Counted from the stretch's first letter, positions 9,346 through 18,316 are shown. The stretch: 64,000 nucleotides of DNA from Polyangia bacterium (GCA_039923495.1 JBDTCO010000064.1:2-64001), one strand, 5' to 3'. The notes: a model not told the origin generated them from the letters alone. A program made the numbers and translations.

Positions 9346-11190
9346 TTACTCCACGAGGTGCGGCTCGCCGACGAGATCGGCGACCTTGCGCGTCTCGTTG
9401 CCCGAGACGACCGTGACGACGAAGCGCAGCTCCTTGCCGGTGGCGGGGCAGGACAGGCGGACCGCGTGCGTTCCGGCGGAGAGCGAGACCTTCACGAGCG
9501 GCGTGTCGGCCTTCTTCTCGCCGTCGATGGTGACGTGGGCCCACGGGCGCGCGCCGAGCGTCAGCAGGCCGCGAGGCAAGGCATCGAGCCCGAGCGTCAC
9601 CGTCGCGGCGCGCGGGGGACCTCCCTGCAGCTCCTCCGGTTTGATGGTGCGCTCGGTCGCTGCGTAGTCGCGACGCTCGACATGGACGCGAGTCGGCTCG
9701 TCGAGCGGGATGTCGACGGTGACCGGGCTTGCGCCGAGCGAGCGGTCGCCGATGCGCACGTCGGCGCCTTCGGGATCGGTGCGGATGGTGAGCTTGCCGA
9801 CCTCCGCCGGGAGCACGAGCGAAACGGCGCGATGCTCGCCGGCGGCGACGTGTACCGTCTGCGTCGCGGTGGGACGATCGGGGAGCGTCGCAGCCAGCAC
9901 GTGCGCACCCGCCGAGAGTCGCAGGCTCCCATCCGGATCGCGAACGGCGGTCGCACCATCGACGGAGATCGTCGCGTTCGCGGGCACGACCGTGAGTGCC
10001 AGGGTGGCCGGCAGCGGCGCGGCCGCGACGATGGGCGGTGGCGAAGTGCCGACGGTGTCGCGCAGCCGCGAGCCCACGAACGCGGACACCACCACAAGCA
10101 GGATGCCGCCGCTCACGAGCAGCGGCATCGGGAGCGAGCGTGTCGCGCGCTCGTCGGTCGGCACGCGAACGGCCGCCTCGACGACGGGCGCTTCACCGGT
10201 CGCTGGCTCTGCGTCGATGAAGCGCGTCGCGAACGTGACCTCCCTGGTCGGGTACGTGCGCGTCCCCATCGCGGGCGTCGCGTTCGCGGCGCGCTGGCCC
10301 ATCGGCGCGGTCGTCGATCCGGGCGCCTCGCTGCGCTGCGGCACCGCCACTGCATCTGCAACTACGTCTGCAACTGCATCTACAACTGCATCTGGCGTCC
10401 GCTGCCGGACCAGGCGTGCGAGATCGGCCTGCATGGACGCCTCGGTGTCGCGCAGGTAGCGCGTGACCGGTGACAGCATTGCCTCGGCGCTGGCGTAACG
10501 GTCGGCGGAGCGAGGCGCCACGGCGCGCTCGATCACCTCGAGTAGTTGTGCAGGCGCATCCTCGGGGATCCCGCTGTCGCGGCGTCGGCCGGCAAGCATC
10601 TCCCACAGCAGCACGCCCACCGTGTAGAGATCGGAGCGGGCGTCGACCCGGTCGCCGCACTCCTGCTCGGGCGCGACGTAGCCGCGCGACCCACCGATGA
10701 TGGCACGACCGCTCACCTCGGCAGAGATCCCGAAGTCGAGCAGCTTGACCTCGCCATCACGGGAGCAGAGCACGTTGGCCGGCGAGAGGTCGCGATGCAC
10801 GATGCCGCGACGGTGCGCGTAGTCGAGCCCGCGCAGGATCTGCTCCGCTATGTACGCGGCGATCGGAGCGGGCAGCTTGCCCCCATCGACGAGCTTGGCG
10901 AGCGGCGGGCCATCCACGAGATCGAGCGCGAGGAAGTACGTGCCATCGACCATGCCGAGCTCGAACACCGGAACGATGTTCGCGTGCGTGAGCTGCACGG
11001 TCGTCTTCGCCTCCTTCACGAAGAGCTCGATGAACTCGGCCCGCGCTGCGAGCTCGGCGCGAATCTGCTTCACGACGAGCGTCTTCTCGAACCCGCCGGG
11101 CCCGCTGAGCTTGGCGCGGTAGACGACCGCCATCCCACCCTCGGCGATCTTCTCCACAAGGAGGTACTTGCCGAAGATGATCGGCTCCAC
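9346..11190 (-). CDS. Ser/Thr protein kinase with TM segment and C-terminal PEGA domains
   Basis: Hanks kinase motifs present: VVKQIR Lys, HRDLSPANVL, DFG, APE. TM helix present. PEGA-like repeats (TIRTDPEGADVRIGD; VTIDGE). 12-bp imperfect tandem repeats in the linker encode (DAVxDAVA). Confidence 0.9.
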   Translation of the reverse strand: MEPIIFGKYLLVEKIAEGGMAVVYRAKLSGPGGFEKTLVVKQIRAELAARAEFIELFVKEAKTTVQLTHANIVPVFELGMVDGTYFLALDLVDGPPLAKLVDGGKLPAPIAAYIAEQILRGLDYAHRRGIVHRDLSPANVLCSRDGEVKLLDFGISAEVSGRAIIGGSRGYVAPEQECGDRVDARSDLYTVGVLLWEMLAGRRRDSGIPEDAPAQLLEVIERAVAPRSADRYASAEAMLSPVTRYLRDTEASMQADLARLVRQRTPDAVVDAVADVVADAVAVPQRSEAPGSTTAPMGQRAANATPAMGTRTYPTREVTFATRFIDAEPATGEAPVVEAAVRVPTDERATRSLPMPLLVSGGILLVVVSAFVGSRLRDTVGTSPPPIVAAAPLPATLALTVVPANATISVDGATAVRDPDGSLRLSAGAHVLAATLPDRPTATQTVHVAAGEHRAVSLVLPAEVGKLTIRTDPEGADVRIGDRSLGASPVTVDIPLDEPTRVHVERRDYAATERTIKPEELQGGPPRAATVTLGLDALPRGLLTLGARPWAHVTIDGEKKADTPLVKVSLSAGTHAVRLSCPATGKELRFVVTVVSGNETRKVADLVGEPHLVE

Positions 11191-11237: not shown

Positions 11238-13232
11238 ATGACGCGGACCGCCGATGTGGTGCTCGGCGCTGGCCTGGTCGCCGGTGTCCTTTTTTGTGGC
11301 TGCGATGTGCCGCGCGAACTCACGCTCGTCCCCGCGCTGCCGCGGCCGTGCGGCGGCGCGAACACGGGTTCGCTGAGCGTGCGCGGCCTCGGCGACTTTG
11401 CACCGACGGCAAAGAGCGTCGCGACGTCGGCCACGGGCGCGGTGGACCTTGCCCTGTCGTTGCAGCGCAACACGCGGGTCATCACGCTCTCTGGTGTGGG
11501 TGGTGCATCAGTGCCGTTCGGTCGCACGGCGCCGCTCGCGCTGCCGGCGCTGTGGAGCGACGCGCACGTCGCGTCCATCGTATACGGGCCGCCGGACACG
11601 TTCTGCGACACGGCGTCGATGGTGTACGCGCGCGCCGGTCATCGCGCGACCCTGCTCGACGATGGGACCGTGGTGCTCACCGGCGGAATCAATCGCGATG
11701 GGTACGGCGTCGCGCCGATCGAGCGCTACCTTCCGGCCGGCGATGCGAGCTCGCCGATCGCGCGCTTCGAGCTCGCGGATCAAGGAGGCACCACACTGGA
11801 TGCGCGCTCCGTGCTCGGCCATGGGGCGACCGTGATGAACGATGGTCGCGTGCTGCTGACCGGGGGCGTGCCGGCCGGTGCCAGCACCGTCGCGTTCGAG
11901 GGCGCCGTCGTGCTCGATGCGCTGGGACGCGCCACTGGCAAGCCGCTGTTGCTCGGCGGCGGACCGCGCGCGTACCACGCGAGCGTCGCGCTCGCCGACG
12001 GTACGATCCTCCTGACGGGGGGCTGCCTCGAGGTCGACGGCAACGCGTGCGCGACCGGCCGCACGCTCGACACCGCCGTCCTCTACGATCCGGCGACCGA
12101 CGCGTTCACCGACGCACCGACCCTCACGGTCGCGCGCGCCGGTCACGCGGCGCTCCTGCGCAGCGATGGGCTCGTGCTGCTCGTGGGTGGGAACGGAGCG
12201 GACGGGAGCGTGCCACCCGTCGAGCTGTACGATCCGAGCGAGCAGCGCGGCTCGTTGCTCACGGGGCCGGTCGGGCACGCGGTGCGGCTCGACAGCGGGC
12301 TCGTCATCGGGGTGAACGATGCGGCAGGCCCGAGCGCGGTCGTCTCTGCGTGGAGCGGTCGCGACGACGCGACCGTCGCGCTGCCGTCGCTTCCGACCAG
12401 CCGGAGCGACGGCACGCTGACCGCGCTCGAGGACGGCAGCGTGCTGTTCGCCGGCGGCTGGGACGGCGCGTCGCTCGCGAGCACGAGCGTCGTGCTCGGC
12501 GGCGATCCGCTCGGTCCGTCGACGCTGCTCTCGGGTTTCCTCGCGCATGGCCACACCGCGACGCGGCTCCTCGACGGGACCGTCCTGCTCGCAGGCGGCT
12601 CGGACCTCACCGGCATGTCGAGCGCGCACGCCTCCGTGTTCCTGCGCTCGCTGCGTGGACCGTTCGACACGCCTGCCACGTTCGACTTCGGCGGGGGTGT
12701 CGCGCTCTCACCGAGTCGCGCGGATCACGTGAGCACCGTCGACGGCGCGCTCGTGGTGAGCACGGATGTGCAGGGTGACGTGCCGCTCGTCGACTACGCG
12801 CTCGTGGCCGGACCCGAGCTCGCGGGACCATCGGCGGCAGGGTTCTCGCTGTCAGTGCTCGCCGGTCGTAAGGCGCTCGGTACCGGCACAGCGGCGCTCC
12901 TGTTCGGCGCGCCGGCAAGCGGTCGCTACGTGGCCGTGCGCATCGCGGCGAACGCTGGGCCGACGGTGCTCGTGGTGGCGCCGGATCGCGCGGGGCGCCT
13001 CGACGCGAGCGTGCAGCCCGGCTGCGATGCGAGTGTCGTGGCGGACGGCGAGCTGCCGGCCGGGGGACTGTCGGCGTTCACCCTCACGGCCCGAGATGGC
13101 CGCATCGAGCTGCACACGGCGACGCGGCGGGTGCTCCGCTGCAGCGACGAAGGGTGGCCCGGGCGCGGCATGCTCGGGGTCGGTGCGGCGGATGGCGTCG
13201 TGGTGTTCGACAACGTCGCCATACTCCGCTGA
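11238..13232 (+). CDS. Kelch-repeat (beta-propeller) lipoprotein
   Basis: LFCGC lipobox. Repeated DGxVLLTGG / DGTILLTGG / DGLVLLVGG kelch-like blades. Confidence 0.75.
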   Translation: MTRTADVVLGAGLVAGVLFCGCDVPRELTLVPALPRPCGGANTGSLSVRGLGDFAPTAKSVATSATGAVDLALSLQRNTRVITLSGVGGASVPFGRTAPLALPALWSDAHVASIVYGPPDTFCDTASMVYARAGHRATLLDDGTVVLTGGINRDGYGVAPIERYLPAGDASSPIARFELADQGGTTLDARSVLGHGATVMNDGRVLLTGGVPAGASTVAFEGAVVLDALGRATGKPLLLGGGPRAYHASVALADGTILLTGGCLEVDGNACATGRTLDTAVLYDPATDAFTDAPTLTVARAGHAALLRSDGLVLLVGGNGADGSVPPVELYDPSEQRGSLLTGPVGHAVRLDSGLVIGVNDAAGPSAVVSAWSGRDDATVALPSLPTSRSDGTLTALEDGSVLFAGGWDGASLASTSVVLGGDPLGPSTLLSGFLAHGHTATRLLDGTVLLAGGSDLTGMSSAHASVFLRSLRGPFDTPATFDFGGGVALSPSRADHVSTVDGALVVSTDVQGDVPLVDYALVAGPELAGPSAAGFSLSVLAGRKALGTGTAALLFGAPASGRYVAVRIAANAGPTVLVVAPDRAGRLDASVQPGCDASVVADGELPAGGLSAFTLTARDGRIELHTATRRVLRCSDEGWPGRGMLGVGAADGVVVFDNVAILR

Positions 13233-13245
13233 GAGCCGGGCCCAG

Positions 13246-13938
13246 CTACTGCTTCTTCTTTTTCTTCGCCTTCGGATCCTTCGGCGCCGGCAGCTCGAGC
13301 TTCGTGACCGTCATGTCGACCGCCTGCTTGATGGCGGACGTCGCGGCTTCCATCATCAGCTTCTTGCCCTCGACGGCGTCGTCCTCGGTCTTGCGGATCT
13401 CCGCTGCGACGTTCGCGTCTCCGTCGCCGCCGATGGCCATGATCTTCTCGGGGAGCGTCGTCCCGAAGACCGCGAGGTGGATGCCGCGCTTCACGACGCG
13501 GAATGGCTTCCCCGCCGGGGGGGGCTCGAGACCGCTCGTCACCTCGAGCACGCGCAGCGACATGTCGAGCGCGCGATTGATGCCGTTCTTGTGGAGGCTG
13601 TCCTTGAACGCCTGCGGCTCGGTCGCAGGGTCCGCCGTCACGTCCGGCAGGCCGAGCACGAGCTCCGGATGCCGCGCGATCTCTTCGGCGAAGAGGCGCT
13701 TGAGCTCGGGGACAAGGCCACTTTTGACGCCGTCGGCCTCTTCGACACCTTCGATCACCACGAAGAACCGCTCGTGCCGCAGCTCGGGTGTCTTCACCGA
13801 GGCGCGGGCGCGCGGTGCAGCGCGTGCAACGTTTTCTCCGACGGTGGCGGTGCTCAGCAGCGCCGCTGCCGAAACGAGACCCAAGCTGACGACTCGACCC
13901 AAACCCATGCCCAACGCTGCCACAGCATCGGCACTCAA
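13246..13938 (-). CDS. Hypothetical secreted protein with Lys-rich tail
   Basis: ORF with a predicted signal peptide (LGLVSAAALLSTA). Good GC3 codon bias. No family recognised. Confidence 0.5.
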   Translation of the reverse strand: MSADAVAALGMGLGRVVSLGLVSAAALLSTATVGENVARAAPRARASVKTPELRHERFFVVIEGVEEADGVKSGLVPELKRLFAEEIARHPELVLGLPDVTADPATEPQAFKDSLHKNGINRALDMSLRVLEVTSGLEPPPAGKPFRVVKRGIHLAVFGTTLPEKIMAIGGDGDANVAAEIRKTEDDAVEGKKLMMEAATSAIKQAVDMTVTKLELPAPKDPKAKKKKKQ

Positions 13939-14025
13939 GGGCCAATTACTTGACCCGTAAGCAGAAACTCACGTACGTTGTACCGCGCTCTCGGACCGCC
14001 TTCGACCAAGGAGACATCGACCGGC

Positions 14026-16035
14026 ATGTTCTCAATCCTTGTTAGTGAGAAGGGTGGCGACTCCAAACGCCTCGACTTCGACAAACCTGAAGTCACGATC
14101 GGCCGCGTCCAGGGCAACGACATCATATTGCCGAAGGGCAATGTCTCGAAGCGCCACTCGCGCATCGTGCTCAAGGACGGCAAGTTCATTATTGTCGATC
14201 TGAAGAGCACCAACGGGACCTACGTCAACGGACGCAAGATCACGAGCCCGCTCGTCGTGAAGAACAGCGACAAGATCTATATCGGCGACTTCATCCTCGC
14301 GATCGAGGAGGCCGGTGCTGCTGCTCCTGCCGAAGAGGCAGCGCCGCCGTCGCGTCCCCGGACACAGCCGCCGGCCCAGAGCGCTCCGCCGCCTCCGCCG
14401 CGTCGCCCCATCGAAGAAGAGCAGGACGAGCCGCCCGCGCCTTCGATGGGTGATCACGATCCGGAGTCCGATTCGACGATGGGGCGTCAGGACGAGGACG
14501 AGGACGAGCCAGAGCCAGAGGAAGCACCACCTCCTCCAGCGCGCCGTCCCGTCAGCGCGCCGCCGCCCGCCGCTGCGATTCCCACGATGCGTCCGCAAGC
14601 ATCGCCCGTGGCGCCGCCGGTGCGTCCGTCTGCGACGCGCGACGTTCCGGCTATCGCCCCGGCGCGTCCGGCAGCGCCGCCGCGTGCGTCGGCGCCTGCG
14701 CCTGCCGCGGCCGCGCCGCCGCCTGCCGCTGTGCGTCCACGCCCCGTCAGTGCTCCGCCTGCTGCGCCCGCACGTCGTCCGGCTCCTGCCGTCGATGGGG
14801 GCGCCGATGCCTCGCGTCGCGGCCGCATCCTCGACGCGCTCCGTACTCTCTCGAGCAAGCTCGTGACCACGCTCGGCGGAGAACTCGAGTCGCTCCAAGG
14901 GGACGCGCTCCGCGATCGCGCCGAAGCGGTCGCCAACGATCTCGTCACCGAGCTTGCGCAGGATACCGGACTTCCCCCGGGCATCGAGCCGGACCAGCTC
15001 CTCCGCGACGCCGTCGGGGAAGTGGTGGGCCTCGGTCCGCTCGACGAGCTCCTGCTCGACGAGTCCGTCACCACCATCACCGTCGCTCGCCCCGACCGCA
15101 TCTTCGTCGATCGCAGCGGTCAAGGTCGGTCGCTCGCTCCGCGCTGGATCTCGTCCGGCAGCGCCGCGCATCGTATCCTCGACAGGGTCGCGCACCGCGC
15201 CGGTCGTCGCGCGGAGCTCGCCGATGCTCGCGAGCACGGCGGCCTGTTCGAGGCGCGCCTCGACGGTGGGTTCCTGCTCAGCGCCGCAGTGGGCCCGCTC
15301 TCTTCGGGCTCCGTCTCGATGGTCGTCCGGCGTAGCCGTCGCGATGCCTCGCGTCTCTCCGACCTCACGTCGCAAGGCGTGCTGTCGCAGGGCATGGCCG
15401 ACTTCCTCGACCTCGCTGTACGTGCGCGCCGGAACATTCTCATTGCCGGCGCCACGGGCAGCGGTCGCTCGACGCTGATGGGCGCTCTCGCTCGGTCCAC
15501 CGATGGGCAGCGGTTCGTGTTCGTCGAGGAGTCCGCCGAGATCGACGCTGGTGACCAGCCTTGGATCTCGCTCAGCGGCGCCGGTGGCGATGCGCGTCGC
15601 GCGTTCGCTGCAGCGCTCCGCCTCAAGCCGGAGCACGTCGTCGTTGGTGACATCCGTGGTGCCGAGGCGCTCGACGTCCTCAGCGCCGTGTCGGGTGGCA
15701 TCGATGGCGCGCTCCTCGGGATCGCTGCCACGTCCACGCGCGAGGCGCTTCGTCGCCTGGTGTCGTCGGCGCGGCTCGCGCCCGATGCCCCCACCGCTGC
15801 GGCGCTCGAGGCCGAGGTTCCGAACGGTGTGCACCTCGTCCTGCTGCTGACGCGTGCGGTGGACGGCGAGAGCCGCATCACCGAGATCGCCGAAGTGATC
15901 CCGGGCGAAGACGGCACCAGCGTCGCCACCGCGATCTTCAGTGCGCGTGGCGAGGGCGCCAACGTGCGGTTCACCGCATCGGGACACGTACCGGGCTGGG
16001 CCGAGGGCGCGCCCGCATCGATGTTCCGCGCCTGA
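14026..16035 (+). CDS. FHA-domain protein fused to a CpaF/TadA (VirB11-family) secretion-type ATPase, with degenerate Walker A
   Basis: AAGGAG RBS 11 nt upstream of the ATG. N-terminal FHA (TIGRVQGNDIIL...SKRHSRI). ~200-aa Pro/Ala-rich linker. C-terminal CpaF-like domain: NILIAGATGSGRSTLM, VVVGDIRGAEAL. Confidence 0.85.
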   Translation: MFSILVSEKGGDSKRLDFDKPEVTIGRVQGNDIILPKGNVSKRHSRIVLKDGKFIIVDLKSTNGTYVNGRKITSPLVVKNSDKIYIGDFILAIEEAGAAAPAEEAAPPSRPRTQPPAQSAPPPPPRRPIEEEQDEPPAPSMGDHDPESDSTMGRQDEDEDEPEPEEAPPPPARRPVSAPPPAAAIPTMRPQASPVAPPVRPSATRDVPAIAPARPAAPPRASAPAPAAAAPPPAAVRPRPVSAPPAAPARRPAPAVDGGADASRRGRILDALRTLSSKLVTTLGGELESLQGDALRDRAEAVANDLVTELAQDTGLPPGIEPDQLLRDAVGEVVGLGPLDELLLDESVTTITVARPDRIFVDRSGQGRSLAPRWISSGSAAHRILDRVAHRAGRRAELADAREHGGLFEARLDGGFLLSAAVGPLSSGSVSMVVRRSRRDASRLSDLTSQGVLSQGMADFLDLAVRARRNILIAGATGSGRSTLMGALARSTDGQRFVFVEESAEIDAGDQPWISLSGAGGDARRAFAAALRLKPEHVVVGDIRGAEALDVLSAVSGGIDGALLGIAATSTREALRRLVSSARLAPDAPTAAALEAEVPNGVHLVLLLTRAVDGESRITEIAEVIPGEDGTSVATAIFSARGEGANVRFTASGHVPGWAEGAPASMFRA

Positions 16036-16070
16036 ACTGGCTCGTGACCGTCCTCGAGGAGCGCTAGCCG

Positions 16071-17360
16071 ATGTGGCGGATCATCGCGCTCGACAAGGAC
16101 GGTCGCGAGGTAGCGCGTCTCGAGATCGCGACGGGCGAGCTCACCATCGGTCGCGATCAGGACCGCCAGATCCAGTTGCCGTCAGCGAGCGTGTCTCGTC
16201 GGCACGCGCGCCTGATGGTCAGTGGTGGGCAGTTGCTCATCGTCGACGAGGGCTCCGCGAACGGTGTTTCGGTCAACGGCACGCGTGTCACGAGTGCGAT
16301 GCCAGTCGACGGTCTCTCGAGGATCGAGATCTCCGAGTTCCGCATTGTCGTCGAGCCCCATGGTGCGCCGATGATGGGCGATCCGCCGACGCCTGCGGTG
16401 TCACCGATGGCGACCTCGCTCGTCACGGAGTCGATCCGGCTGGTCGCGCAGGGCGGCCCGTTCGACGGTCGTGTTTTCCCCGTCATCGGCGAGTGCACCG
16501 TGGGCCGCGCCACCGAGAACCAGATCGTGCTCGACGATCCGTCGCTGTCGCGCAAGCACGCACAGCTCCGCGGGCAGGGACGCCGCCTCGACGTGGCCGA
16601 TCTCGGCTCGTCCAACGGCACCTTCGTCAACGGTCGTAAGGTCGGGCGCGCCACCGCGACGCCCGGCGACACCGTCCGCTTCGGCGAGCTGAGCTTTCGC
16701 ATCGAAGACGAGCGAGGGCAGGGCAGAGCCGGCGGTGAGCTCACGAGCGGCCTCATGATCGCGCTGCTCGGCTCCGGCGCCCTCACCCTCGTCATCGTGC
16801 TCGTCGCGGGCGTCGTCCTCGTCCGCAGGCCGACGGCAGTCGCCGCACCCGCGAAGGACGCCATCGCGCGCATCTCGCGCCAGGCCGAGCAGCACCTCAA
16901 GCTCGGCAAGCAACTCTTCAACGACAAGAAGTGGAGCGATGCGAAGATCGAGCTCGATGCCACGATCGAGTCGGATCCCGCGAACACCGAGGCCCGCCGC
17001 TTGAAGGCGCTCGCCACGCGCGCGCCCGAGGACGAGCGCAACCTCGCCAGCGCTGCGTCCGCGCTCGCCATCGGCGACCGTCGAGGCCTCGAGACGGCGA
17101 TGAGGTTGCGCGACGAACTCCTCGTCGGCACGGCGGCCCGCAACTCGCTCGAGGCAAAGCTCGTCCCGCGCCTCCTGCAGTTCGGGCTCGCGCGCTTCGA
17201 TGAGAGAAACTTCGTCGACGCGGAGTGGGCCCTGTGCCGCGCGTTCGAGGTCAACAGCGTCCAGGCGCGCGCGGACGCTCGTGCGGGCCACGACATCCAC
17301 GACGCCGAGAAGAAGCTCGCCCACGAACGCGGCTCTCAACCGTGCCGCGCAGCTCGTTGA
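16071..17360 (+). CDS. Double-FHA-domain membrane protein with C-terminal helical/TPR-like region
   Basis: Two FHA cores (LTIGRDQDRQIQL...SRRHARL and CTVGRATENQIVL...SRKHAQL). One TM helix (LMIALLGSGALTLVIVLVAGVVLV). Confidence 0.85.
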   Translation: MWRIIALDKDGREVARLEIATGELTIGRDQDRQIQLPSASVSRRHARLMVSGGQLLIVDEGSANGVSVNGTRVTSAMPVDGLSRIEISEFRIVVEPHGAPMMGDPPTPAVSPMATSLVTESIRLVAQGGPFDGRVFPVIGECTVGRATENQIVLDDPSLSRKHAQLRGQGRRLDVADLGSSNGTFVNGRKVGRATATPGDTVRFGELSFRIEDERGQGRAGGELTSGLMIALLGSGALTLVIVLVAGVVLVRRPTAVAAPAKDAIARISRQAEQHLKLGKQLFNDKKWSDAKIELDATIESDPANTEARRLKALATRAPEDERNLASAASALAIGDRRGLETAMRLRDELLVGTAARNSLEAKLVPRLLQFGLARFDERNFVDAEWALCRAFEVNSVQARADARAGHDIHDAEKKLAHERGSQPCRAAR

Positions 17361-18316
17361 GCAAGCGCGCCGCCACCAAGTTCCTCGCGCGCCTGCGAGA
17401 AGCGTTGACGCGCTACGCGACGGGCGTGCACGACGTCGGCGACGCGGCGGACACCGCGACGATCGCCGCTGTGGAGCGACGCCTCTCGATCGTGTTGCCC
17501 GAGAGCATGACCGAGGTGTATCGCTTCGCGAACGGCATGTGGCTCTTCGACGACGTGGTGCGCCTGCTCCCGCTCGACGATGTGGAAGCGCGCGACGGCA
17601 GCCTGCGCTACGGCGTCACCGATGGCATCTCGCTGTGGGTCGACGCCGAAGGTCGCGCGTACGAGCTCGACGACGATGGCGATCGCGTGCTCGTCGCTGT
17701 CAGCATCGAGGAGGACCTCCTCGCTCGCATCGCGCGCGAGGGCCTGCTCATCGACGACGATGGGGAGTGGCGCGACGTCTTCGGTCCCGACGGCGAGTTG
17801 CTGCCCGCGGTGCAGCGAAAGCGCAACGAGATAGCGCGCAAGCGAGCGCCCACCTCCGCGCGCTGGTTGCTCGAGGCCGCCGAGCTCGCCCTCGAGATCG
17901 ATGGCGATCCGTCGCCATTCCTCGTCGAGGCGCGCGCGCTCGATCCGGTCGCGCCCGGGCCCGCGGAGCTACACGGCCTCTTGCTCTCGGGCCGCGGCGA
18001 GCTCGAAGCTGGTGCAGCGGCGCTGGCCGATGCAGCGACGCACAGCGGCCCCGTCCGTCAGGCGGAGCGCGCCGCCATCGCCGCCGAGGCCGCACAGCGC
18101 GCCGGTCAAACGGACGTGCGCGCGAAGATGGCCGCGCTCGCCATCGAACGCGAGCCAGGCATCGTCGCGCGCCTCGGCGAAGAGGCGGAGTCCGCGCTCC
18201 AGCACGGCCGCCTCGAAGACGGTGACAGGCTCGGCGCGCTCGCTCGCGCCGTCGCAGGCGACGCCGGCGGCGTGACGACGCGGCTGCGGCTGCGCGAGAA
18301 GCTGCGCTCGATCTGA
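17357..18316 (+). CDS. SMI1/KNR4 (SUKH-1) family protein
   Basis: TTG start overlaps the upstream stop (TTGA); a GTG at 17342 is the alternative. DVGDAADTATIAAVERRLSIVLPESMTEVYRFANGMWLFDD matches the SMI1/KNR4 signature. Confidence 0.6.
   Translation: MSKRAATKFLARLREALTRYATGVHDVGDAADTATIAAVERRLSIVLPESMTEVYRFANGMWLFDDVVRLLPLDDVEARDGSLRYGVTDGISLWVDAEGRAYELDDDGDRVLVAVSIEEDLLARIAREGLLIDDDGEWRDVFGPDGELLPAVQRKRNEIARKRAPTSARWLLEAAELALEIDGDPSPFLVEARALDPVAPGPAELHGLLLSGRGELEAGAAALADAATHSGPVRQAERAAIAAEAAQRAGQTDVRAKMAALAIEREPGIVARLGEEAESALQHGRLEDGDRLGALARAVAGDAGGVTTRLRLREKLRSI

Follow-up and report, generated by a model that had tools for sequence, protein, structure and literature searches.

FHA domains act as scaffolds in the threonine-phosphorylation control of secretion machines, as in the T6SS (Fha1/TagH with PpkA-PppA) and the T3SS (the cytoplasmic FHA domain of SctD/YscD). 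These scaffolds are cited as a parallel in the work on the Kil apparatus of Myxococcus xanthus (PMC8460266), a Tad-like system that is used for killing (PMC8460266, PMC12075869). Kil loci abound in FHA proteins, and both KilD and KilF gather in foci where the bacterium touches its prey (PMC8460266). The system is spread over at least two clusters; the kilF cluster contains no platform genes and these are found in the second cluster (PMC8460266, PMC12075869). KilF (MXAN_3107) consists of an N-terminal FHA domain fused to a CpaF-type ATPase, and its motifs are canonical (GGTGSGKTT, VEDAAEL, VGECRG, GHDGS..T.HAN and a full pore loop). The kilF gene adjoins the secretin gene kilC and the prepilin peptidase gene kilA and is directly followed by the gene for KilD (MXAN_3108), which has several FHA domains and a helical/TPR-like tail. 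CpaF/TadA of C. crescentus is a bifunctional Tad motor (PDB entries 8rkd and 9e24; PMC12019362, PMC11300603). The roles of its residues are taken from PMC12019362, where the K287A mutation is found to abolish ATPase activity.

The locus described here consists of four genes, U, A, B and C, within a 64-kb window (the whole stretch of DNA that was analysed; Table 1). Gene A encodes the same type of fusion as kilF. An earlier note had described an FHA domain joined to a CpaF-type ATPase through a Pro/Ala linker of about 200 residues, and Pfam indeed identifies both FHA and T2SSE (residues 335–579, 4.7e-23) on either side of a 190-residue linker. The phosphothreonine-binding GR, SKRH and NG residues of the FHA domain are intact. 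The linker (26% Pro, 20% Ala and 11% Arg) is probably disordered. The remainder is colinear with the CpaF structures over 334 residues (phmmer, E 4e-34), and both proteins share the layout of a disordered N-terminus, an N-domain and a catalytic domain. The NCBIfam TadA model scores A at 142.7 bits, far short of its cut-off of 373. More than 1236 homologues retrieved in a homologue search share the architecture of A.

Table 1. Features of the U, A, B and C locus and two neighbouring genes.
Feature	Coordinates	Strand	Description
Hanks Ser/Thr kinase	9346–11190	-	With PEGA domain (Pfam); lineage-specific neighbour
Kelch-repeat protein	11238–13232	+	Pfam; lineage-specific neighbour
U	13246–13908	-	Exported protein, 220 aa from ATG; transcribed divergently from A
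U/A intergenic region	13909–14025	.	Divergent; contains the Shine-Dalgarno sequence of A
A	14026–16035	+	669 aa; FHA, Pro/Ala linker, CpaF-like ATPase with degenerate active site
FHA domain of A	14092–14286	+	aa 23–87; Pfam FHA, 7e-18
Linker of A	14326–14895	+	aa 101–290, 190 aa; Pro/Ala-rich, acidic patch
CpaF-like N-terminal and catalytic domains of A	14938–15939	+	aa 305–638
Walker A of A	15448–15474	+	GATGSGRST, aa 475–483; R481 at CpaF K287 position, S482 at T288 position
Asp box of A	15523–15543	+	VEESAEI; CpaF D309 to Glu, equivalent of Mg2+-stabilizing E312 retained
Shortened pore-loop segment of A	15544–15636	+	8 residues fewer than CpaF/KilF
Inter-subunit Arg finger of A	15613–15633	+	ALRLKPE; retained, CpaF R347 equivalent
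Walker B of A	15637–15660	+	VVVGDIRG; catalytic Glu (CpaF E357) to Asp
His-box remnant of A	15697–15735	+	GIDGALLGIAATS; both histidines of GH.G...T.HA gone
B	16071–17360	+	429 aa; FHA1, FHA2, hydrophobic helix, 178-aa tail
FHA1 of B	~16143–16346	+	Pfam FHA
FHA2 of B	16494–16685	+	Pfam FHA
Hydrophobic helix of B	16749–16823	+	aa 227–251, single
C (ABI321_06480)	17357–18316	+	319 aa; SUKH (SMI1/KNR4) and TPR superhelix
SUKH domain of C	~17414–17746	+	Foldseek match to 3d5p
TPR superhelix of C	~17804–18307	+	Foldseek match to TPR proteins

When aligned with CpaF, A of the window's lineage lacks the residues on which hydrolysis and force transmission depend. Its Walker A and Asp-box motifs read exactly as reported in the earlier note. 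In the His box the two histidines are replaced by Ile and Ala (GIDG...IAAT), and they are missing in all members of the A family. Arg223 of the N-domain is replaced by Leu, by which one Arg finger is lost, and Asp215 by Glu. The segment between the Asp box and Walker B measures 46–48 residues in the R and YGR clades of the family, compared with 54 in canonical proteins, KilF and most K-clade proteins. The residues that contact Mg2+, phosphate and the subunit interface are retained (Thr288 as Ser, Glu312, Arg217 and Arg347), and since the Lys-to-Arg and Glu-to-Asp exchanges are conservative, slow ATPase activity is possible. Among the 120 homologues listed, 39 cluster representatives carry G..G.GR[ST], and in others the loop reads A-S-G-R-S-T or is shortened to S-G-Y-G-R. 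An alignment of 14 sequences of the clade shows G-S-G-R without exception. The Walker B Asp, the loss of the His box, the Arg223-to-Leu exchange and the eight-residue pore-loop deletion do not figure in the earlier note.

A neighbour-joining tree (100 bootstraps) recovers the A family as monophyletic (100%). In this tree the Arg clade is joined to one that carries a three-residue P-loop deletion (99%), from which it follows that the Lys-to-Arg exchange preceded further decay. The deeper K clade keeps the Lys, often the Glu and all N-domain Arg fingers, and the ancestral protein may therefore have been active. KilF is the nearest branch to the family, with 42% bootstrap support for the sister relation. 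The KilF-like locus L083 has the gene order secretin, FHA-CpaF and double-FHA protein, which is the order kilC–kilF–kilD, and its canonical ATPase shares 81% identity with A in the FHA domain and 32% in the ATPase domains. Judged from its sequence, A descends from the lineage of FHA-fused Tad/Kil pilus motors (CpaF/KilF).

Gene A is under strong purifying selection. Compared with the relative L003, dN/dS amounts to 0.08 for the FHA domain, 0.15 for the linker and 0.105 for the ATPase part. The FHA domain is the most conserved part (dN/dS 0.03–0.08; 73–96% identity across the family, against 33–90% for the ATPase domains), while the linker evolves fastest.

B lies immediately 3' of A in all ten R-clade and all 20 YGR-clade loci. 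It corresponds to the protein with two FHA domains, a TM helix and a helical tail that the earlier note had described after A, with two Pfam FHA matches (8.7e-35) and a further match to PF16697 (Yop-YscD_cpl); its tail gives only weak TPR-like sequence matches. The phosphothreonine-binding GR...SxxH...NG residues are present in all three FHA domains of A and B. BLASTP aligns B with the double-FHA protein of L083 (E 4e-28) colinearly across FHA1, FHA2, the helix and the first helix of the tail. By this alignment B is paralogous to the double-FHA protein whose gene comes after KilF-like genes, in the kilD position. The topology of B is uncertain, since basic residues come straight after the hydrophobic helix and KilD of M. 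xanthus is described as cytoplasmic.

The TTG start codon of C overlaps the TGA stop codon of B by four nucleotides. The AlphaFold model of C, which is confident (pLDDT 91.2), shows two halves. The N-terminal half superposes on the SMI1/KNR4 (SUKH-1) protein BF1740 of Bacteroides fragilis (PDB entry 3d5p; Foldseek, TM 0.63, r.m.s.d. 3.1 Å, 21% identity), so the SUKH assignment of the earlier note stands; the C-terminal half, which it overlooked, matches TPR proteins (Foldseek, E 5e-5). C itself scores marginally below the Pfam SMI1_KNR4 cut-off (24.2 versus 25.4 bits), and its homologues pass the PF09346 threshold and also carry TPR families.

U (212 residues in the NCBI annotation, ABI321_06465) has a signal peptide and an α/β domain, in which the motif AIGGDGD is invariant, and its C-terminus is rich in Lys. 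Its fold is CsgG/LptE/PelC-like. Periplasmic proteins of the CsgG/LptE/PelC/PqiC/TraT fold, which form rings or plugs, share just 6–14% identity with U; compared with these, U has no consistent lipobox cysteine, and compared with CsgG no β-barrel or transmembrane hairpin. U is connected to B through gene adjacency alone. The region between U and A contains the Shine–Dalgarno sequence AAGGAG of A (14008–14013) and no convincing σ70 promoter.

The module is not an orphan, as had been proposed with U overlooked: U|A-B-C is a conserved four-gene module, kept in about 30 loci from metagenome-assembled genomes of Myxococcota (all loci of the A family are from such genomes). U is present in nine of ten R-clade and 18 of 18 YGR-clade loci, and C in nine of nine and 18 of 18. 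Canonical loci contain neither U (0/22) nor C (0/21), and B-like matches occur at two of 24, which are the two KilF-like loci. The absence of TadB/TadC, pilin and secretin genes noted earlier holds across the whole window, which has no T2SSF, secretin, pilin or prepilin-peptidase genes. Nor does the gene set sit beside tadB/tadC or secretin genes elsewhere, an alternative raised at the outset: none was found at about 58 A-family loci, whereas the same queries detect tadB/tadC beside cpaF at about 18 canonical loci, which span many phyla. The window does contain several Hanks kinases, four in number, which are candidate regulators of the module as the earlier note had suggested. Only the one with the PEGA domain shows synteny, and this synteny, which extends to the Kelch-repeat neighbour, is confined to the closest relatives (L001 and L004). 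A cassette of DZR-FHA, PP2C, FHA-trypsin and Ser/Thr-kinase genes lies 5–9 kb downstream in four relatives inspected gene by gene (L002, L085, L086 and L087).

Because A has lost its catalytic residues, yet is conserved with three partner genes and without pilus genes, it is now probably a phosphorylation-controlled scaffold rather than a motor. In the mechanism that we infer from residues and gene context, A would retain nucleotide binding and a CpaF-like hexamer with slow or no ATP turnover, and would serve as a scaffold or switch instead of a pilus motor. The six FHA domains of this hexamer, each on a long flexible linker, would dock it onto partners that Hanks kinases have phosphorylated on Thr. 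B would tether the assembly to the inner membrane via its hydrophobic helix and add two FHA domains, U would be the exported partner across the membrane from A and B, and C, translationally coupled to B, would be the adaptor that carries the output. Scaffold, tether, exported partner and adaptor would then make up a hub of envelope signalling or assembly that is gated by phosphorylation, derives from a pilus motor and is not itself a pilus system, with A as a nucleotide-binding, non-motor hexamer; we give this reading about an even chance. The phospho-Thr-responsive, non-pilus module of the earlier note finds partial support here: the intact and conserved FHA domains and the kinase–phosphatase cassette agree with it, but A and B may yet be tied to a pilus-derived machine, as the pair is paralogous to the KilF-like ATPase and its double-FHA protein.

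It is rather unlikely that A is a working, perhaps slow, motor of a Tad/Kil-like pilus or secretion machine with platform, pilin and secretin genes elsewhere. Missing platform genes alone are weak evidence against this, since the split Kil system has none in its kilF cluster either (PMC8460266, PMC12075869), and a motor would fit the retained P-loop glycines, Mg2+-binding Ser and equivalents of Glu312, Arg217 and Arg347 as well as the Lys, and often Glu, of K-clade relatives. However, four classes of catalytic or coupling residue are altered together (Lys of Walker A, Glu of Walker B, the two histidines of the His box and Arg223), the pore loop, which is thought to engage the platform, is shortened, the sister clade has lost three P-loop residues with its partner genes unchanged, the family loci are uniformly without tadB/tadC or secretin genes, and CpaF K287A is inactive (PMC12019362).

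We are similarly doubtful that A regulates a true Kil/Tad motor, as a pilus-assembly brake or checkpoint that rivals KilF for phosphothreonine docking or enters mixed hexamers with it. The FHA domain that resembles its KilF-like counterpart so much more than the ATPase domains do, the retained inter-subunit Arg finger and the position of KilF in the tree would all agree with such a role. The sister relation to KilF is weak, however, the module's own B, C and U point to an independent assembly, and to our knowledge no mixed hexamers have been described for PilT/VirB11-class ATPases. SUKH (SMI1/KNR4) domains are common among the immunity proteins of polymorphic toxin systems, and C might thus be the immunity protein of a toxin–immunity or defence system; this is very improbable given that no toxin domain is found beside the module, its surroundings are housekeeping genes, PADLOC returns no system for it (the sole match being a 20-bit P-loop) and C is single-copy, TPR-fused, coupled to B and syntenic over deep divergence. 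That the degenerate motifs arose through errors in the sequencing or assembly of a metagenome-assembled contig, with GSGKST as the true sequence, or that A is a decaying pseudogene, is refuted by the comparative data, since the Arg481 codon CGC would need at least two substitutions to encode Lys, the same motifs recur in dozens of independent assemblies of relatives, the gene has an intact reading frame and its dN/dS is close to 0.1.

Compared with the Kil system, the module occurs in the same setting, Myxococcota with an abundance of FHA proteins and Ser/Thr kinases, and B occupies the position after A that KilD has after KilF. The canonical motifs and full pore loop of KilF are lost in A, which has no secretin or peptidase gene as a neighbour and is flanked instead by U and by C, the SUKH-TPR protein, both absent from canonical and KilF-like loci. 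Compared with CpaF/TadA, A has an additional FHA domain, and cpaE/tadZ, tadB/C, pilin and secretin genes are absent nearby. C differs from SMI1/KNR4 proteins such as BF1740 in carrying a fused TPR superhelix (about 170 residues) and in its operon with FHA proteins, with no toxin beside it. As in the T6SS and T3SS scaffolds, the FHA domains of the module lie beside Hanks kinase and PP2C genes and include a membrane-anchored FHA protein (B, predicted); the structural genes of those systems are absent here, and the ATPase-like protein that would be recruited is itself FHA-fused and catalytically degenerate. By analogy, this likeness suggests phosphorylation-gated recruitment of a hexameric ATPase-like component.

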